A stretch of DNA of 64,000 bases, taken from contig CAKOIJ010000001.1 of assembly GCA_934086775.1 (NCBI GenBank), positions 4,141 through 68,140 of the forward strand, in the 5' to 3' direction. The notes under the pieces are model-generated. The model made no database searches. It was not told the DNA's origin and saw nothing but the letters and a program-made list of their open reading frames with translations. Positions within the stretch are counted from its first letter, which is position 1. Each line of letters starts with the position of its first letter. This DNA comes from an uncultured Bacilli bacterium (GTDB taxonomy: Bacteria; Bacillota_I; Bacilli_A; RF39; UBA660). A program made the translations under genes and the position numbers. Below, piece after piece: positions 3,804 through 51,073 of this stretch.

Positions 3804-5930
3804 TTAATTCTCCTTTATTAAAGTAAGTGATACTTTATTTTTATCTTTTTCAATTTTGTCTACATAAACTTTAACTATATCTCCAACATTTACTATTTCA
3901 AGTGGGTCACTTACAAATTTTTTACTCATTTTAGATATGTGTAAAAGTGCATCATCATGGAGTCCTATATCAATAAAAGCGCCAAAGGAAGCAACATTTC
4001 TAACAGTACCTTCTAGTTCTTCTCCTACTTTTAAGTCGTTAATAGTAAGAATATTACTTTTAAGAAGTGGCATTTCAAGTTCATCTCTAGGATCCATTCC
4101 TGGCTCTTTTAACTCTTTAATAATGCTCTCAAGTAAGTATATGTTTATATTAAGTTCCTTATTTAATTTATTTATATCAAGAGTATTAAGCACTTCTTTA
4201 AATTCATTAGTTTGTATATCTTTTAAATCTAAATTTAAATGTTTTATTACTTTTAAAGCTTCATTATAACTTTCTGGATGCACTCCAGTATTATCAAGAG
4301 GATTTACTCCTATAACCCTTAAAAAGCCCACTGACTGTTCATATATTTTAGGGGTAATACCTTTAATACTTTTAAGCTCTTCTCTCTTAGTAAACTTATT
4401 ATTTACTTTATAAGCCATAATACTTTCTACTGCTTTTTTAGTCATTCCACTTATTCTTTTTAAAATACTAGAAGACGCTGTATTAATGTTTACTCCAACT
4501 TTATTTACAACATTTTCTACTGTATAATCAAGTGCTTCTCCTAAATTCTTTTGGTTAACATCATATTGATACTCTCCTACTCCAATACTTTTAGGATCTA
4601 TTTTAACAAGTTCACTTAATGGATCTTGTACTCTTCTTCCAATTGAAACTGCACTTCTTTTTTCAACAGTTAAATCAGGGAATTCTTCTATTGCTAAATT
4701 ACTGGCACTATAGACACTTGCGCCTGCTTCACTAGTAATAATATATTTGACATCTAAACCTTTTATTGCTTCAGCAACAAAGCTTTCGCTTTCTCTAGAA
4801 GCAGTACCATTACCTATAGCAATTAAATTAATATCATGCTTTAAAATCATTTCTCTTAGTGCTTTTGTACTGCCTATTTTGTCATTCTTAGGTTCATGAG
4901 GATATATTACTCCTATCTCTAAAAGATTACCGTTTTCATCAAGAGCAGCAAGTTTACATCCAGTTCTAAATGCCGGATCAAAACCTAGTACTCTAGTACC
5001 TTTGATAGGCCTAGTAAGAAGTAAATTATATAAATTTTTACTAAAAGTACCAATAGCTTTTTCTTCACTTTTAAATGTTATTTCACTTCTGACTTCTCTT
5101 TCAATACTTGGAATAATTAATCTTTTTAAACTATCTTTTATAGATGTTTTAACAACATCTATGACAAAAGAACTATCGTTTTTAATTACTTTATTTTCTA
5201 AAAATGAAATAATATCTTCTATATTATAATCTAAATTAACAGAAATAACTCCTTCTTTTTCAGCACGATTTATTGCCAAACATCTATAGTGTTTTAAATA
5301 TTTAAATTGTTCTTTAAAATTATAATACATCTCATATGTTTTATTTTCATCTATAGCATTTTTCTTTATTTTAGTTTCAATAAAAGCCTTATTATAGATA
5401 TAATTTCTTATCCATTTTCTATAGTATGCATTATCGCTTATCCATTCACTTATAATATATCCAGCATTAGTTAAAGCTTTTTCTTTATCCATATTATATG
5501 GTTTAACAAGTAAATCTAAATCACCAGTAGTAGGAAAAGACATAATCTTTTTAGCAAGAGGTTCGAGTCCCATTTTTATTGCTTCTGTTCCTTTAGTTTT
5601 TTTCTTTTCTTTATAAGGTAAATATAAGTCTTCTACTTCAACTAATTTAGTTTTACTCATTATCTCATTTTTTAACTCTTGAGTAAGCATTCCTTTTTCA
5701 TCTATTAGCTTTATAACAGATAACTTTCTTTCTAAAAGGTTCATATTTCTTTTATATTCATCACTTATTAATTTAATTTCTTCTTCGTTTAAATTATCTG
5801 TTACTTCCTTTCTATATCTTGCAATAAAAGGGATAGTAGCTCCTTCTTCAAGTAATTTTAATGCACTGCTGATTCTTTTTTCACTTATATTAATTTCTTT
5901 ACTTAAATTTTTAATTAATTCTTCATTCAT
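3804..5930 (-). CDS. tex: Transcription accessory protein Tex (YqgF/RuvC-like, HhH and C-terminal S1 domains)
   Basis: 708 aa. C-terminal S1 (GTVRNVASFGAFIDIG), central YqgF-like region. Confidence 0.9.
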   Translation of the reverse strand: MNEELIKNLSKEINISEKRISSALKLLEEGATIPFIARYRKEVTDNLNEEEIKLISDEYKRNMNLLERKLSVIKLIDEKGMLTQELKNEIMSKTKLVEVEDLYLPYKEKKKTKGTEAIKMGLEPLAKKIMSFPTTGDLDLLVKPYNMDKEKALTNAGYIISEWISDNAYYRKWIRNYIYNKAFIETKIKKNAIDENKTYEMYYNFKEQFKYLKHYRCLAINRAEKEGVISVNLDYNIEDIISFLENKVIKNDSSFVIDVVKTSIKDSLKRLIIPSIEREVRSEITFKSEEKAIGTFSKNLYNLLLTRPIKGTRVLGFDPAFRTGCKLAALDENGNLLEIGVIYPHEPKNDKIGSTKALREMILKHDINLIAIGNGTASRESESFVAEAIKGLDVKYIITSEAGASVYSASNLAIEEFPDLTVEKRSAVSIGRRVQDPLSELVKIDPKSIGVGEYQYDVNQKNLGEALDYTVENVVNKVGVNINTASSSILKRISGMTKKAVESIMAYKVNNKFTKREELKSIKGITPKIYEQSVGFLRVIGVNPLDNTGVHPESYNEALKVIKHLNLDLKDIQTNEFKEVLNTLDINKLNKELNINIYLLESIIKELKEPGMDPRDELEMPLLKSNILTINDLKVGEELEGTVRNVASFGAFIDIGLHDDALLHISKMSKKFVSDPLEIVNVGDIVKVYVDKIEKDKNKVSLTLIKEN

Positions 5931-27874: not shown

Positions 27875-29380
27875 CTAATTATAAACTATCTCGTAAGGGC
27901 TTTCTGAACTTCCATTTCCTGAAGAATATGGAACTTCTGCCTTAATTGATATAACAGGGCGGACACCATAAGCAGTGGTCACATTGCCGTCGTCTAATCT
28001 ACCCGGATTGCGCGAACCGTAAACACCAAATGAGCCAGCATTAGCACCATTCCAGTAGGTAGGAGACAAAAGCCACCACCATGTACTTCCTGTTATACTT
28101 GAACCAGTACTATTTAAATAATACCATACTGATGGATTGTTAGTCCATGCTAAACCTCCTGCATAACTAACTTCATCTGCTGTCATGAGTCCTATTGGAT
28201 GTGTTAGTTTTGCTTTTGCATTACTTCCTGAAAATGCATCTTCTGGTGTAGTACAATCGTATGTTGGTGTTTTTTTACTTGCTAGTCTACCATATGCCAT
28301 GTAGTTAAATCTTTCACTTCCTGCTGCACTATATGTTCCATTTGCTACATTTCTATCATTACAGTATATCGCTTCTGTACTTAAGTATTTTGTATAACTT
28401 GTTAAGTTATTACTATACCATTTATCTATTACTCCTTTTACTACACTGCTATTTGTATTTTTACGATTATTTTCTAAAGACCCACTTATTCCATACATAT
28501 AACCTACATACATTGAATCATTAGATGTACTATTGAATTTACTTGTACCTATATATCCACTTGTTGTATCAGGACTTGTTCCTGAATACAAAAGTCTAAT
28601 ACTTCCATCATGATTTGTTCTTATTATTCTCCAGTAAAATCCTGCAAATTTTACCCAGTTATTAGTAGGATTCCCTGCAAAGTAATATACATCTTTTGTT
28701 GGTCCTCCTGTTATACTTTCAGTACTCTTAAATAATGTACCAGTTGTATCACTTGTAAATATTGAACTAAATGATGTTCTTGTTCCTCTTGTTTGATTAT
28801 CATTTAGTATTTGCCATCCCAAAGTACCTTCTTCATATTCTCCATGTATATTCTCTGTTCCTTTTTCTATATACAATGAACCACTTAATACTTTACCCAT
28901 ATCTTCACTTTGATCTACTACTAAAGTATCTATATATTTAAATTCTATACTATATGAGTGAGTTTTACCTTTTGCTATTTCTACACTATGGGCTAAAACT
29001 GTATCAGTAGTTGAACTTCTTTTAGGTACATCTTTAAACTCACTCATATTGTATCCACCATCAGTACTAGTTATTTTGTATACTAAATATCCTTTTGTAA
29101 TAAAAGTATTTACTAAATCTTTTATTACTATATTGTATTTATATGTACCATCACTTTCATTCTTTACTGTGAATGTACTTATACCACTTGACCAACCTGG
29201 TACTATTTCTGAACCTGCTATTGTACCTGTACCACTGTTAAATACTATCCTAAGATTAGCACTGTCAACTGAAACTTCTTTTTCTTTTCCAAGTATTTCC
29301 ATTGAAAACCATGCTAAACTAACTGATAATACTATTACTAACAAACTCCCTAATATAATTAATAATTCTTTCTTTTTCAT
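27875..29380 (-). CDS. Secreted TasA/camelysin (M73)-like protein with SipW-cognate-type signal motif (…SLAWFS…), paralogue 1, 501 aa
   Basis: N-terminus MKKKELLIILGSLLVIVLSVSLAWFS. N-terminal domain pattern (VFNSGTGTIAGSEIVPGWS…FTVKNESDGT) resembles TasA/CalY. Paralogous to 33794..35320 including the C-terminus …VRPVISIK…SPYEIVYN. Confidence 0.55.
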   Translation of the reverse strand: MKKKELLIILGSLLVIVLSVSLAWFSMEILGKEKEVSVDSANLRIVFNSGTGTIAGSEIVPGWSSGISTFTVKNESDGTYKYNIVIKDLVNTFITKGYLVYKITSTDGGYNMSEFKDVPKRSSTTDTVLAHSVEIAKGKTHSYSIEFKYIDTLVVDQSEDMGKVLSGSLYIEKGTENIHGEYEEGTLGWQILNDNQTRGTRTSFSSIFTSDTTGTLFKSTESITGGPTKDVYYFAGNPTNNWVKFAGFYWRIIRTNHDGSIRLLYSGTSPDTTSGYIGTSKFNSTSNDSMYVGYMYGISGSLENNRKNTNSSVVKGVIDKWYSNNLTSYTKYLSTEAIYCNDRNVANGTYSAAGSERFNYMAYGRLASKKTPTYDCTTPEDAFSGSNAKAKLTHPIGLMTADEVSYAGGLAWTNNPSVWYYLNSTGSSITGSTWWWLLSPTYWNGANAGSFGVYGSRNPGRLDDGNVTTAYGVRPVISIKAEVPYSSGNGSSESPYEIVYN

Positions 29381-29413
29381 ATAGACTTCCTTTCTTTTTT
29401 AGACACTAAAAAA

Positions 29414-29436
29414 AGATAGATTTAAAAAATCTATCT
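29414..29436 (-). terminator. Leader terminator/attenuator hairpin AGAUAGAUUU-UUUAA-AAAUCUAUCU followed by U7, immediately upstream of the RBS of paralogue 1
   Basis: Perfect 10-bp inverted repeat plus U-run on the minus-strand RNA. Covaries with the copy-2 hairpin. Confidence 0.55.
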
Positions 29437-29467
29437 CATTAAAGCACATGAAAAACCAGAAGGTTTA

Positions 29468-29533
29468 CTAGTTATTAATAATAACCCCCCCCCCTAGTAC
29501 TTTATTTTGTACATATAGGCTGTTGTTTTTCAT
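29468..29533 (-). CDS. Leader peptide uORF (21 aa, MKNNSLYVQNKVLGGGVIINN) containing the poly-G tract
   Basis: SD AAAGGAGA 5 nt upstream of the ATG. Conserved in copy 2 (MKNSNLFVQNKVLGGG…). Confidence 0.45.
   Translation of the reverse strand: MKNNSLYVQNKVLGGGVIINN
29485..29494 (-). repeat. Homopolymeric tract C10 (G10 on the coding strand) inside the leader uORF
   Basis: Seen directly. The only long G/C homopolymers noticed in this roughly 25% GC window are at the equivalent position of both paralogues. Confidence 0.9.
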
Positions 29534-29571
29534 GTTTTTCTCCTTTGTTATTTGTAGCTTCCTACAATAAA

Positions 29572-29628
29572 ATAATACCACAAAAAGTATTAGTTTACAA
29601 GTATTATTTTCTTGTACTTTTTGTGGTA
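29572..29628 (-). promoter_or_regulatory. Sigma-A-like promoter (TTGTAA-17-TATTAT, 29572..29600) embedded in a 14-bp-arm palindrome TACCACAAAAAGTA-N24-TACTTTTTGTGGTA (29576..29628), a candidate operator
   Basis: Seen on the minus strand. Identical arrangement upstream of paralogue 2. Confidence 0.45.
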
Positions 29629-29632
29629 CTAA

Positions 29633-30214
29633 TTATTTCTTCATTATTAATTTAATATTATTTTCTTTAGAAGAATCATTATTTAGTAATTCTTCTTTTC
29701 TAATTTCAAACATTCTTATACTTTTTTCTTTAAGATCATTTATTTCATAAATTATTTCATTTTCTTTAGATATTCTTTTAGTTTTTTCTAGCTCTAATTC
29801 TTTTAAAGTTTTTTCTTTTTCTAACTTAATGTTATTTAAATACTTGCTAAGTTCTTTAACTTTAGAGTCATATTTATGAGCATAAACAAGAGTTAATATA
29901 AATACAAATACATTTACTCCTGATAAAAGAATTGTACCAACTATATTAATAAAACCACCTAAATTTAATGGGATAATTCCAAGTGATAAAACCGAAATAA
30001 TAAGTAAAAGTTTATTAAAACCTTTAATATCTTTTCTTAAATTTAATAGTTTTATATTATTATTTCTTATTTCTTTATCAAGAAGTTCTATTTTATTTTC
30101 AAGTAAAGGCTCATTTTCATTAAAATTCTCTACTATTTTAACATTTCCATACTCATTAACAATTGCAGTTTTATCTTTAGTGACATGCATGTATTCTTTA
30201 TTCATATAACCCAC
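29633..30214 (-). CDS. Hypothetical membrane protein with coiled-coil segments (193 aa)
   Basis: Central TM helices flanked by K/E-rich heptad-like regions. Confidence 0.45.
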   Translation of the reverse strand: MGYMNKEYMHVTKDKTAIVNEYGNVKIVENFNENEPLLENKIELLDKEIRNNNIKLLNLRKDIKGFNKLLLIISVLSLGIIPLNLGGFINIVGTILLSGVNVFVFILTLVYAHKYDSKVKELSKYLNNIKLEKEKTLKELELEKTKRISKENEIIYEINDLKEKSIRMFEIRKEELLNNDSSKENNIKLIMKK

Positions 30215-33774: not shown

Positions 33775-33795
33775 AAGTGCAATTTCTTGCACTTT
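33775..33795 (-). terminator. Intrinsic terminator AAGTGCAA-TTTC-TTGCACTT for paralogue 2 (overlaps its stop codon)
   Basis: Hairpin followed by a U-rich run on the minus strand. Confidence 0.55.
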
Positions 33796-35320
33796 AATTA
33801 TAAACTATTTCGTATGGGTTTTCTGAACTTCCATCTCCCAAAGAATATAGGGCATCTATCTTAATACTGATAACTGGTCGAACAGCATTTTGAGTCCTAG
33901 AAGTATTATATACTAAAGCACCATTATATTCTTCTTTAGCTGGATAATAATTAATACGAGCAAGTGCCGCATAATAATGATGCTCAGAATCACTAAAAAA
34001 ATATCCGCCTGGGGAAATAGTCCACCATACTGTTTTTTTCGAAACAAACTCGCTTTTACTGTTCAAATTAAACCATAAGTATGAGTTCAATAAACTTGTT
34101 CCAGCTTTACCACCTGCATAAGCTATCTCATCAGCTGTCATTAGTCCTATTGGATATGTTAATTTTGCTTCACTATTACTTCCTGAAAATGCATCACTAC
34201 TATCTTCACAATTATATGTTGGATTTCCTGCTCTTAATCTTGTATATACATAGCAGTTAAAAGAACTACTGGCATTATAACTTGGTGCTTTTCTATCATT
34301 ACAATAGACTGCTTCTGTACTTATGTATTTTGTATAACTTGTTAAATTATTACTATACCAGTTATCTATATATGTTTTTATAGTACTATTATTTTCATTT
34401 GTTCTATTGCTTTCAAGACTTCCACTTGTTCCATACATGTATCCCACATACATTGGGTCATCATATGTACTATTGAATGCGCTTTTTCCTATATAACCCT
34501 GAGTTGTATCAGGACTTGTTCCTACATAAAGCATTCTAATACTTCCGTCTGCATTTGTTCTTATTATTCTCCAGTAGTATCCTCCAAATTTAACCCAGTT
34601 GTTAGTAGCATTTCCTGCAAAGTAATACACTATTTCAGGTGTACTTCCTGCTATACTTTCAGTACTTGTATAAAGCGTTCCTGTATTAGTAGAATTAAAT
34701 GTATTTGAAAAGTCACTTCTTACTCCTCTTACTGGATTATCTTCTAGTAATTTATACCCAAGTGTTCCTTCTTTATAATCTCCGTGTAATTTTATTTCAT
34801 TATTATCTATATATAGTGTTCCGGATAGCTCTTTTCCCATATCTATATTTTGATTTTCAGTTTCACTATTTAAATATCTAAACTCTACATTATATGTATG
34901 AGTTTTATTCTTTTCTATATTTATATTATATCCTAGTGTCATATCTGTACTTATACTGCTTTTAGGTACATCTTTGAAGTCACTCATATTGTATCCACCA
35001 TCAGTACTAGTTATTTTATATTGTAAGTATCCTGTTGTTACAAAAGTATTTATTAAATCTTTTATAACTATGTTATATTTATAAGTACCATTACTTTGAT
35101 TTTTAACTGTAAAAGTATTTACTCCGCTACTCCAACCTGGTTCTATTTCTGAACCTGCTATTGTACCACTTCCACTAGCAAAAACTATTTTTAACTCTGC
35201 ACTAGATGTAGATACATTAGAGTTTTTACTATTAATAGTTGTACTAAAATATGCTATTGATACTGATAGTACTACTACTAATAAACTTCCTAATATAATT
35301 AATAATTCTCTCTTTTTCAT
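33794..35320 (-). CDS. Secreted TasA/camelysin (M73)-like protein with SipW-cognate-type signal motif (…SIAYFST…), paralogue 2, 508 aa
   Basis: N-terminus MKKRELLIILGSLLVVVLSVSIAYFS. Collinear similarity to 27875..29380 over the full length. Confidence 0.55.
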   Translation of the reverse strand: MKKRELLIILGSLLVVVLSVSIAYFSTTINSKNSNVSTSSAELKIVFASGSGTIAGSEIEPGWSSGVNTFTVKNQSNGTYKYNIVIKDLINTFVTTGYLQYKITSTDGGYNMSDFKDVPKSSISTDMTLGYNINIEKNKTHTYNVEFRYLNSETENQNIDMGKELSGTLYIDNNEIKLHGDYKEGTLGYKLLEDNPVRGVRSDFSNTFNSTNTGTLYTSTESIAGSTPEIVYYFAGNATNNWVKFGGYYWRIIRTNADGSIRMLYVGTSPDTTQGYIGKSAFNSTYDDPMYVGYMYGTSGSLESNRTNENNSTIKTYIDNWYSNNLTSYTKYISTEAVYCNDRKAPSYNASSSFNCYVYTRLRAGNPTYNCEDSSDAFSGSNSEAKLTYPIGLMTADEIAYAGGKAGTSLLNSYLWFNLNSKSEFVSKKTVWWTISPGGYFFSDSEHHYYAALARINYYPAKEEYNGALVYNTSRTQNAVRPVISIKIDALYSLGDGSSENPYEIVYN

Positions 35321-35343
35321 AATGACTTCCTTTCTAACACGAA

Positions 35344-35372
35344 AAATAGATAGACTAAAAGTCTATCTATTT
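35344..35372 (-). terminator. Leader terminator/attenuator hairpin AAAUAGAUAGAC-UUUUA-GUCUAUCUAUUU followed by U5, upstream of the RBS of paralogue 2
   Basis: 12-bp inverted repeat. Stem-top sequence differs from copy 1 but pairing is preserved. Confidence 0.55.
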
Positions 35373-35461
35373 AATACACATGAAAAACTAGAGTTATTAG
35401 TTGTTAGTAATAACCCCCCCCCCAAGTACTTTATTTTGTACAAATAGGTTGCTGTTTTTCA
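35363..35461 (-). CDS. Leader peptide uORF (32 aa, MKNSNLFVQNKVLGGGLLLTTNNSSFSCVLNR). Its stop lies inside the terminator 5' arm
   Basis: SD AAGGAGA upstream. G9 tract puts the frame one position off relative to copy 1. Confidence 0.45.
35414..35422 (-). repeat. Homopolymeric tract C9 (G9 on the coding strand) inside the leader uORF
   Basis: Seen directly. Confidence 0.9.
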
Positions 35462-35540
35462 TGTTCTTTGTCTCCTTTGTTTTTTTGAAATATATGTACC
35501 ACATTATGTACACTACATTTCTTATATTTTCTTACAATAA

Positions 35541-35597
35541 AATAATACCACAAAAAGTATTAGTTTACAAGTATTATTTTCTTATACTTTTTGTGGT
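35541..35597 (-). promoter_or_regulatory. Sigma-A-like promoter (TTGTAA-17-TATTAT, 35541..35569) embedded in palindrome TACCACAAAAAGTA…TACTTTTTGTGGTA (35545..35597)
   Basis: Sequence identical to the copy-1 promoter/palindrome. Confidence 0.45.
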
Positions 35598-35868
35598 ACT
35601 AATGCGTAGCAATTTTTAAAATTGGTTTTAATAATAAAACTACTTATGATATAGTTCATAAGTTTTTCAAATGGGGGTCAATTAAAAATAAACACCAAAT
35701 CAACTTGATCTGGTGTTTATCAGCACAATACGGACTGAGTGAATACCTAACGAGCAAAAGCTAGGTAATACTCATTTTATTTGTCCTTTAATATTATATG
35801 AAGCATTTCTTCATGTATACATGATATCATTTGTATCAAATAATATCAAGTACTTTATATTGTGCTTA

Positions 35869-50720: not shown

Positions 50721-51073
50721 TGGTGGAGCTGACGAAGAGCGACTTCGTGTCCAAAGTATCAACCATACAGACGTGTACAAGTTTAGTTGGTTTATTATTT
50801 CAAAAAATATTATGGAGAGCCAACGTTCCTATATTTTTCTAAGTTTAGTAATAGTTCATTATATAACCTAAACAATTATATAGTATAGTTCACTTTTATA
50901 AGTCCAGACATTACCCTCGTGAACAAAGAATAAGCTGAACCACTTGTTTTTCCTTAATTAGGCAAAAGCAGGTGCGTAATTAAAATCGTTTCCGATTATT
51001 TTTTGTTGCGTTTATAGTACGCCTACTACTTGCATCCATACGTACAACTACTCTGTCGAATCAAAACAGCCCC
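50721..51073 (-). ncRNA. ssrA: Transfer-messenger RNA (tmRNA, SsrA)
   Basis: 5' GGGGCUGUUUUGAUUCGACAG… pairs with 3' …CAGCUCC-ACCA. T-arm ACGAA/GUCGCUC/UUCGU. Internal tag ORF ending …GAUUUUAAUUACGCACCUGCUUUUGCC UAA UUAA (…DFNYAPAFA*). Located in an ORF-free region of locally higher GC. Confidence 0.8.

Follow-up and report, generated by a model that had tools for sequence, protein, structure and literature searches.

Poly-G tracts in leader open reading frames as a predicted ON/OFF switch of terminator read-through in an uncultured RF39-like gut bacterium

The pil1 and pil3 loci of Streptococcus gallolyticus carry GCAGA repeats inside a leader-peptide gene (Danne 2014, PMC3894217). When the leader is short, it ends 39 bp ahead of a stem-loop terminator and expression is low; with out-of-frame repeat numbers, the leaders end within or after the hairpin, the ribosome prevents the hairpin from forming and expression is high (PMC3894217). 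In pil1, deletion of the hairpin (delta-term) locked expression in the high state, mutation of the start codon or ribosome-binding site (RBS) of the leader (ATG*) locked it in the low state and the mutant 3-STOP, in which all three frames carry stops, lost heterogeneous expression; these mutants support the model (PMC3894217). We describe here two loci of comparable design in a stretch of 64,000 nt of contig CAKOIJ010000001.1 (hereafter the window). The host is an uncultured gut Bacilli bacterium ("Tenericutes"/RF39-like) and the GC content of the window is 25.2%. At each locus, a leader open reading frame (ORF) containing a run of ten G residues (G10) precedes a terminator-like hairpin and a gene of a multigene family. 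The comparison with related leaders suggests that the length of the G tract selects the reading frame of the leader and, through it, whether the terminator would form.

At both loci the parts follow the same order: an upstream hairpin, a sigma-70-type promoter-like site, an ORF with a Shine-Dalgarno (SD) sequence and the G10 tract, a spacer, the terminator, an RBS and the structural gene. No promoter-like site is found between the terminator and the structural gene at either locus. The parts of the two leaders are the following.

29577..29627, minus strand: inverted repeat ACCACAAAAAGTA-N25-TACTTTTTGTGGT of 13 bp upstream of leader 1, terminator-like (-19.6 kcal/mol, z-score -5.4)
29572..29600, minus strand: promoter-like site of leader 1, TTGTAA-17-TATTAT with TG extension (consensus match only)
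29540..29546, minus strand: SD sequence AAAGGAG of leader ORF 1, 6 nt before the ATG
29468..29533, minus strand: leader ORF 1 in its short frame, 21 aa, MKNNSLYVQNKVLGGGVIINN then stop (predicted OFF state)
29485..29494, minus strand: G10 homopolymer of leader 1 (C10 on the plus strand), the proposed slipped-strand switch, as read in the sequence
29431..29433, minus strand: TAG in the 5' arm of the terminator, end of the long (G9/G12) leader ORF 1 (natural G9 counterpart in L107)
29408..29437, minus strand: terminator-like hairpin of leader 1, GAGATAGATTT-TTT-AAATCTATCTT then U7, with an 11-bp stem and a 3-nt loop
29386..29394, minus strand: RBS GAAAGGAAG of paralogue 1, as read in the sequence
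35547..35597, minus strand: inverted repeat lying over the promoter of leader 2, visible in the sequence
35542..35570, minus strand: promoter-like site of leader 2, TTGTAA-17-TATTAT with TG extension (promoter scan)
35472..35478, minus strand: SD sequence of leader ORF 2 (AAAGGAG-N6-ATG)
35397..35462, minus strand: leader ORF 2 in its short frame, 21 aa, MKNSNLFVQNKVLGGGVITNN then stop (predicted OFF state)
35414..35423, minus strand: G10 homopolymer of leader 2, as read in the sequence (likewise G10 in L190)
35363..35365, minus strand: TAG in the 5' arm of the terminator, end of the long (G9/G12) leader ORF 2 (natural G9 counterpart in L113)
35342..35372, minus strand: intrinsic terminator hairpin of leader 2, 13 bp then U5 (-14.0 kcal/mol, z-score -6.1)

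Leader ORF 1 is read ATG AAA AAC AAC AGC CTA TAT GTA CAA AAT AAA GTA CTA GGG GGG GGG GTT ATT ATT AAT AAC TAG, where the G10 tract corresponds to three Gly codons and to the first base of the following codon. An earlier reading, made from the sequence of the window alone (the sequence-only reading), had described this ORF of 21 aa on the minus strand with a well-spaced SD sequence; the codons are as it stated, and the SD sequence lies 6 nt before the ATG. The same reading placed the stop of the G10 peptide about 40 nt upstream of the hairpin; the stop does precede the hairpin, but by about 30 nt in leader 1 and by 24 nt in leader 2. The hairpin of leader 1 has a predicted energy of -9.7 kcal/mol (z-score -4.0), and the terminator stems display compensatory changes in subfamily A, the subfamily to which the leaders of the window belong.

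Relatives were collected from two sources. Loci of related genomes were scanned for G/C runs (67 loci, 323 kb), and a DNA-pattern scan of metagenome contigs gave 120 further loci with the leader pattern. Of the 100 leaders that were analysed, 98 were retained and two were dropped for mis-assigned terminators. Besides subfamily A, two other subfamilies of leaders (B and C) were distinguished. At the species level, the comparison concerns two assemblies, the window and ERZ28614312.

The G tracts are exceptional in this genomic context. The window contains two G/C runs of length 10 and no run of 6 to 9, while 6e-4 runs of at least 10 are expected from its base composition; a chance origin of the G10 tracts is thus excluded, in agreement with the sequence-only reading, which had judged such a run very unlikely at about 25% GC. 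Both runs occupy the equivalent site in the two leaders, and their length is above the approximately 8 nt from which a homopolymer is taken to be long enough for slippage. Among the Gly codons of the long ORFs of the window, GGG is the least frequent (7.2%), whereas it is used for all three Gly codons in about 100 leaders, which argues for a selection on the nucleotide run itself. In the 323 kb of related loci, all the G runs of at least 8 (15/15) are on the gene strand, at approximately 105-120 nt before a gene of the family, and each is included in an SD-led short ORF (sORF), behind which come a GATAG...CTATC hairpin and a T run. C runs of at least 7 are absent from these 323 kb. A G7 run was also observed at L038:4935-4941, directly before the ATG of an unrelated ORF of 536 aa and after a TTGACA...TACAAT promoter; it seems to be the ribosome-binding site of this ORF and may be another length-variable site.

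The lengths of the tract in the 100 leaders are G7 (1 leader), G8 (23), G9 (49), G10 (26) and G11 (1). In the 98 retained leaders, the positions of the stop codons of the leader ORF are bimodal: 52 are located 24-42 nt before the hairpin, 41 inside the hairpin and 5 beyond it. Two of the 41 stops counted as inside are at the edge of the hairpin (in L090, 3 nt before the first base of the stem; in L165, the last base of the stop is on this first base). In the DNA itself, approximately 46% of the leaders already have the long frame. When the frames obtained with n-1, n and n+1 residues are compared, exactly one is long in 98/98 leaders and the other two stop 24-42 nt before the hairpin. Exactly one open frame is found in all the unique spacers between tract and hairpin (65/65), versus 53% of shuffled spacers.

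Different tract lengths are found at loci that are otherwise the same. Locus L094 (G10, short frame) and locus L112 (G9, long frame) have identical flanks over 300 nt. Clusters of loci with at least 95% identity span G7 to G11 and include both states; for example, L003 has G10 at approximately 26x coverage and its counterpart L119, at least 95% identical, has G9. Mixed states are also observed within metagenome-assembled genomes (MAGs), as in UMGS1658 (L027 long; L003, L004 and L028 short) and in a Hadza MAG (L006 and L011 long; L058 and L059 short). The two leaders of the window have natural counterparts in the other state: L107 displays the immediate flanks of leader 1 with G9 and its ORF of 33 aa ends at the TAG of the hairpin arm, and L113 displays the immediate flanks of leader 2 with G9 and a long ORF ending likewise. 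In five other leaders (L110, L123, L124, L170 and L178), the long frame has no stop in the hairpin and reads through the terminator and the U run (...KWIGEVYPFFVM then stop), to end about 20 nt before the ATG of the structural gene.

This variation at identical loci, together with one long and two short frames, is in these comparisons what would be expected from a slipped-strand ON/OFF switch whose state is read out by a terminator. A slipped-strand contingency locus had been proposed by the sequence-only reading, and the relatives bear it out, with tracts from G7 to G11 and different lengths between identical flanks (L094/L112). The evidence of length variation cited for that proposal was a miscount: a G run does occupy the equivalent site of the paralogue, but it has 10 residues (35414-35423) and not 9, and consequently the cited difference of length is absent from the window.

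The mechanism that we consider the most likely, and to which we give a good probability on the basis of the sequence comparison and of the pil1 analogy, is an occlusion of the terminator by the ribosome, gated by tract length. Slipped-strand mispairing at replication would shift the G tract by one base, in a heritable and reversible manner. With G9 or G12 in the leaders of the window, the ORF would continue for 17-18 codons past the Gly codons, up to a TAG located in the hairpin's 5' arm. The sequence-only reading had predicted that G9 leads to ATG AGA TAG in this arm; the frame is confirmed, and L107 is a natural case. A ribosome that translates the long frame close behind the RNA polymerase would cover the 5' arm, the hairpin would not form and transcription would read through into the gene (ON). 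In the two other frames, which include the present G10, the ribosome would be released 24-30 nt before the hairpin and the terminator would form (OFF or low leak). As both tracts of the window are G10, both copies are in the short frame, and they are predicted from their sequence to be OFF at present; G9 or G12 would turn them ON. In this scheme the hairpin presumably terminates transcription, the leader sORF is presumably translated, ribosome and polymerase would be in proximity and switching would be frequent within a clone. That the occupancy of the ribosome causes read-through we infer from S. gallolyticus pil1. The proposal that tract length sets an attenuated or a read-through state thus finds support in the sequence comparison and in the pil1/pil3 precedent (PMC3894217), with termination and its dependence on translation as its presumed steps.

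An additional helix, named P1, is predicted in both leaders of the window.

29525..29535, minus strand: 5' strand of P1 in leader 1, ACAUGAAAAAC, containing the start codon of the leader
29446..29456, minus strand: 3' strand of P1 in leader 1, GUUUUUCAUGU, downstream of the stop of the short frame and upstream of the terminator, in a part that the long frame alone translates
35454..35464, minus strand: 5' strand of P1 in leader 2 (predicted fold)
35378..35388, minus strand: 3' strand of P1 in leader 2 (predicted fold)

In subfamilies A and B, P1 shows 98-99% pairing, and two of its pairs are changed on both sides in subfamily B. The 'FSC' conserved in the long peptides is accounted for by P1, whose 3' strand lies at the same position. 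As a hypothesis drawn from the folding models, P1 may block the translation of the leader when the frame is OFF and leave it open when the frame is ON. In subfamily C (L057 and about 58 others), P1 is replaced by a predicted pairing of the leader SD sequence AGGAGG with UCUUCU, which directly follows the tract, and by one of the G run with a CUUCACCU stretch upstream of it; neither pairing shows covariation. A candidate pause hairpin beside the tract (GUAC-N8-GUAC, -2.9 kcal/mol) was rejected, being no better than in shuffled sequences.

Several observations weigh against occlusion of the terminator by the ribosome. The terminator of leader 1, with 2 G-C pairs and -9.7 kcal/mol, is AT-rich and did not pass a simple terminator scan. 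The RNA polymerase of Bacillus subtilis is reported to outrun the ribosomes, so that a tight coupling cannot be assumed. Subfamily C leaders are devoid of P1. A classical antiterminator was sought and rejected, since minimum free energy and consensus folds contain no upstream complement to the 5' arm of the terminator; according to these folds, the design would be a simple ribosome occlusion without antiterminator. Within the species no variation of length is observed: G10 is present at both loci in both assemblies, and the variation is therefore shown in relatives only. A look-up of the exact proteins of the species, which merges similar places, retrieved a single other sample, with G10 at both loci, and the exact sequence of paralogue 1 is not on record, as expected if its variable region varies. 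Finally, the tract lengths come from short-read metagenome assemblies, some of low coverage (about 3.6x for L094), in which G homopolymers are error-prone, and single length calls at low coverage should be treated with care. On the other side, ribosome-mediated attenuators do work in Firmicutes, pil1 included.

Among the other explanations, the one that survives best is an action at the RNA level, to which we nevertheless give a low probability. Slippage of the polymerase or ribosomal frameshifting on G9-G10 would produce in each cell a fixed mixture of short and long products, hence a constant read-through without ON and OFF lineages. Long homopolymers are known slippage sites, an architecture of one long and two short frames would serve slippage equally well and the fixation of G10 in both assemblies of the species fits with it. 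However, the tract differs in the DNA between identical or near-identical loci, the long frame is already present in the DNA of about 46% of the leaders, which slippage does not require, and the analogue that has been studied experimentally (pil1) switches at the DNA level. RNA slippage and a DNA switch could also coexist, slippage adding leak.

It is less probable still, and in our opinion unlikely, that the differences of length are artefacts of sequencing or assembly, the real tract being fixed in a constitutive leader with a partial terminator. This explanation is helped by the error rate of Illumina reads at long G runs, by the low coverage of some contigs and the many contigs that break at the leader, and by the occurrence of G10 alone within this species. 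Nevertheless, contigs of high coverage differ too (L003 with G10 at approximately 26x versus L119 with G9), errors would not create a three-frame design in which one frame is open to the hairpin in 98/98 leaders, and a fixed tract would not account for three consecutive copies of the rarest codon at this site in three diverged subfamilies of leaders.

We consider it very improbable that the sORF, with a terminator of its own, codes for a small peptide that has a function (for example signalling or bacteriocin-like, with Gly-Gly-Gly), the G run merely coding for Gly3 and the gene being expressed by ordinary read-through. The N-terminal motif LVQNKV-x-GGG is indeed common to the three subfamilies and the sORF has a good SD sequence and its own terminator. 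By contrast, all three Gly are encoded by GGG in about 100 leaders although this codon is the rarest for Gly, the C-termini are wholly different according to frame and subfamily (VIINN, IIF, VLSSN, LFK and others) and half of the loci encode a different and longer peptide. Moreover, the 3' strand of P1 falls on the same place as the conserved 'FSC' in the long peptide, no Pfam or NCBIfam family applies and the sORF occurs only together with genes of a single family. Equally improbable is a tract that tunes a promoter spacer or serves as target of a small RNA (sRNA) or protein, as for the promoter tracts of Neisseria and Treponema or for tlpB of Helicobacter pylori: homopolymers of promoters and 5' untranslated regions are the commonest non-coding contingency loci, but here the tract is found about 80 nt (leader 1) or 120 nt (leader 2) past the only good -10 and is part of an SD-led ORF, it is spanned by no promoter-like site on the gene strand (which rules out the spacer version), no C-rich partner RNA is seen in the window (no other G/C run of at least 6) and the frame architecture relative to the hairpin is left unexplained.

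The inverted repeat of leader 1 overlaps the promoter and the -35 falls in the loop region of the hairpin; this repeat probably insulates the locus from upstream transcription. A block of 82 nt containing the inverted repeat and the promoter (29552-29633 and 35522-35603) is 94% identical between the two loci, while the genes behind it have only about 77-79% nucleotide identity. This block may be an insulator-promoter module, or it may be kept alike by gene conversion. Relative to leader 1, leader 2 contains an insertion of 41 nt between the -10 and the SD sequence (35485-35525, minus strand), with its own predicted hairpin (AAAUGUAGUGUACAUAAUGUGGUACAUAUAUUU). A candidate small transcript (35687-35849, minus strand) was observed between an ORF of 147 aa and leader 2; it has a promoter-like TTGATA-17-TATCAT (35849-35821) and, about 100 nt further on, a strong terminator (35721-35687, 16 pairs). 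It has no match in Rfam and no counterpart at leader 1. The leaders themselves gave nothing at gathering score with Rfam 15; at E<=1, nothing was found for leader 1 and only a chance match to mir-16 for leader 2. In these Rfam searches the leaders match no known RNA family or riboswitch.

Downstream of the leaders, the regulated genes encode two paralogous proteins, the first of which includes a segment resembling the variable region (VR) of a diversity-generating retroelement (DGR).

27875..29380, minus strand: paralogue 1, regulated gene, 501 aa, with an N-terminal hydrophobic helix, a beta-rich domain and a DUF6273-like C-terminus
33794..35320, minus strand: paralogue 2, regulated gene, 508 aa, 60% identical to paralogue 1 (comparison)
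27956..28075, minus strand: DGR variable-region-like segment in paralogue 1, by comparison with the template repeat (TR) of L002

The label "TasA-like" given to these proteins by the sequence-only reading is not supported: no match to TasA/camelysin (Peptidase_M73) was detected in Pfam (E<=0.01 and E<=1), in NCBIfam or in a PDB profile search, and the sole profile match in these searches is a weak DUF6273 at the C-terminus. An AlphaFold2 model built from 17 sequences was poor (predicted local distance difference test of 47.5), and Foldseek retrieved with this poor model only generic beta-sandwich and carbohydrate-binding module matches of low TM-scores. Relatives of the regulated proteins are counted in thousands in human-gut metagenomes; in genome collections they come from uncultured 'Tenericutes', Bacilli and Clostridium sp. 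CAG:628-type MAGs, with many copies per MAG (at least a dozen in UMGS1658). Divergent members of the family (L008, L013, L017, L020, L022, L036, L038, L054 and others) have a plain promoter and RBS upstream, with no G tract or leader ORF. From these sequences, the poly-G switch appears confined to part of the protein family.

The protein of L002 that belongs to the family is 90% identical to paralogue 1. In L002, the C-terminal 120 nt of the family gene are repeated just after a gene of 447 aa of the RVT_1 family (L002:1461-1580 and 3941-4060), and all the mismatches between VR and TR (16/16) are at adenines of the second copy. When the segment 27956-28075 of the window is compared with the same TR, 15/15 differences are at TR adenines and all the other positions are identical. 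DUF6273 has been described as a C-type-lectin-like variable domain of DGRs (PMC10743442). Paralogue 1 resembles such targets by its weak DUF6273 C-terminus and by the adenine-only differences from the TR of its relative, and it is probably a DGR target, judging from these sequences. Neither reverse transcriptase nor TR is present in the window of 64 kb, and the likeness to DGR targets (PMC10743442) concerns the regulated protein and not the switch.

A broader picture may be drawn, which we propose tentatively and hold for somewhat less than an even chance. The RF39-like lineage would have a layered variation of its surface, where each of many membrane-anchored paralogues (at least a dozen in one MAG) is switched independently by its own poly-G attenuator, in combination, as are the vlp genes of Mycoplasma, where some paralogues are hypermutated by DGRs at C-type-lectin-like tips and where a feedback through P1 sharpens the ON and OFF states.

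Concerning the genomic setting, the stretch is chromosomal: neighbouring genes encode IF-2, NusA, RimP, a peptidyl-prolyl isomerase (PPIase), RNase HII, 1-deoxy-D-xylulose-5-phosphate (DXP) synthase and YceD. A full-length transfer-messenger RNA (tmRNA) was detected by Rfam at 50721-51073 (minus strand, 119 bits), whereas ARAGORN found neither tmRNA nor tRNA in the whole window. Among the related loci, metagenome contigs very often have one of their ends at most about 150 nt from the G tract, as is the case for L001:1-30, for L002:1-62 and for many of L070-L149 (for example L077, L081, L083, L088, L115, L138 and L147). Short-read assemblies evidently break at these genes because of a conserved multi-copy leader with a variable homopolymer.

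Several known systems share one part of this design. The poly-G tracts of Campylobacter, the tracts of Neisseria and Haemophilus and the poly-A tracts of the vlp genes of Mycoplasma hyorhinis give a heritable and reversible ON/OFF expression of surface proteins. As in vlp, each member of a multigene family has here its own tract, which would allow a combinatorial expression. In these classical loci the tract is situated in the structural gene, where it acts by translational frameshift, or in the promoter spacer, whereas here it is in a separate leader ORF and would be read via an intrinsic terminator. In the attenuators of pyrBI and trp in Escherichia coli, of bmrCD and vmlR in B. subtilis and of lmo0919 in Listeria, the position of the ribosome on a leader ORF decides the formation of the terminator. 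Those attenuators respond to a physiological signal (charged tRNA, UTP, antibiotics) and often contain antiterminators; in the present leaders, where the folds showed no antiterminator, the reading frame would set the state genetically. Genes for surface or sensory proteins whose expression is modulated by a variable G run in the 5' leader are uspA1 of Moraxella catarrhalis (poly-G) and tlpB of H. pylori (G repeat bound by the sRNA RepG). Unlike here, the tracts of uspA1 and tlpB are not in a translated sORF before a terminator, and that of tlpB acts via pairing with the sRNA. In Clostridioides difficile, cwpV is phase-variable by the formation of a terminator in the 5' leader of a surface-protein gene; this is due to a site-specific inversion of DNA, in place of the slipped-strand mispairing and translation proposed here.

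The closest system is pil1/pil3. Both designs contain a promoter, an SD-led leader ORF with a simple-sequence repeat, a spacer of about 30-40 nt, a terminator, an RBS and a gene for a surface structure; in both, a clear gap separates the stop of the short leader from the hairpin (about 28 nt or more in the pil1-type design, 24-42 nt here), the shifted leader stops within or after the hairpin, and the number of repeats differs between isolates (here, between relatives). No sequence homology to the pil1/pil3 leader was found, and the repeat unit, the peptide and the host differ, so that the two systems are analogous and not homologous. The repeat is here a G homopolymer of 7-11 nt, and in pil1 13-23 GCAGA pentamers; one of three frames is long here, versus both out-of-frame states in pil1. 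The targets are here many paralogues of a multigene family per genome and in pil1 a pilus operon. Unlike pil1, the leaders described here have an extra helix, P1, which would sequester the start codon of the leader, and a translational feedback of this type is not described for the pil1 system. As for the hosts, S. gallolyticus pil1 has been experimentally dissected, while the RF39-like gut bacterium is uncultured and known from sequence.

The mechanism is experimentally demonstrated so far only for the pili of S. gallolyticus, and we found in the literature that was searched no homopolymer version of it and no phase variation in RF39. The mechanism proposed here is not categorically new, since it would be a homopolymer variant of the pil1-type attenuation switch. 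What is new is the host, from an uncultured gut lineage, the large multigene family, probably also diversified by DGRs, and the extra helix predicted to sequester the start codon. The link with DGR hypermutation suggests a strong pressure of host immunity or phages on these proteins. If the proposed switch is true, the length of the tract modulo 3 predicts the ON/OFF state of each paralogue straight from metagenomes, and the expression of surface antigens in an abundant and almost unstudied lineage of the human gut becomes readable in existing data. It would then be the second known phase variation based on a leader peptide and a terminator, the first with a homopolymer and the first outside streptococci, and the pil1 design would be a recurrent solution rather than a curiosity.

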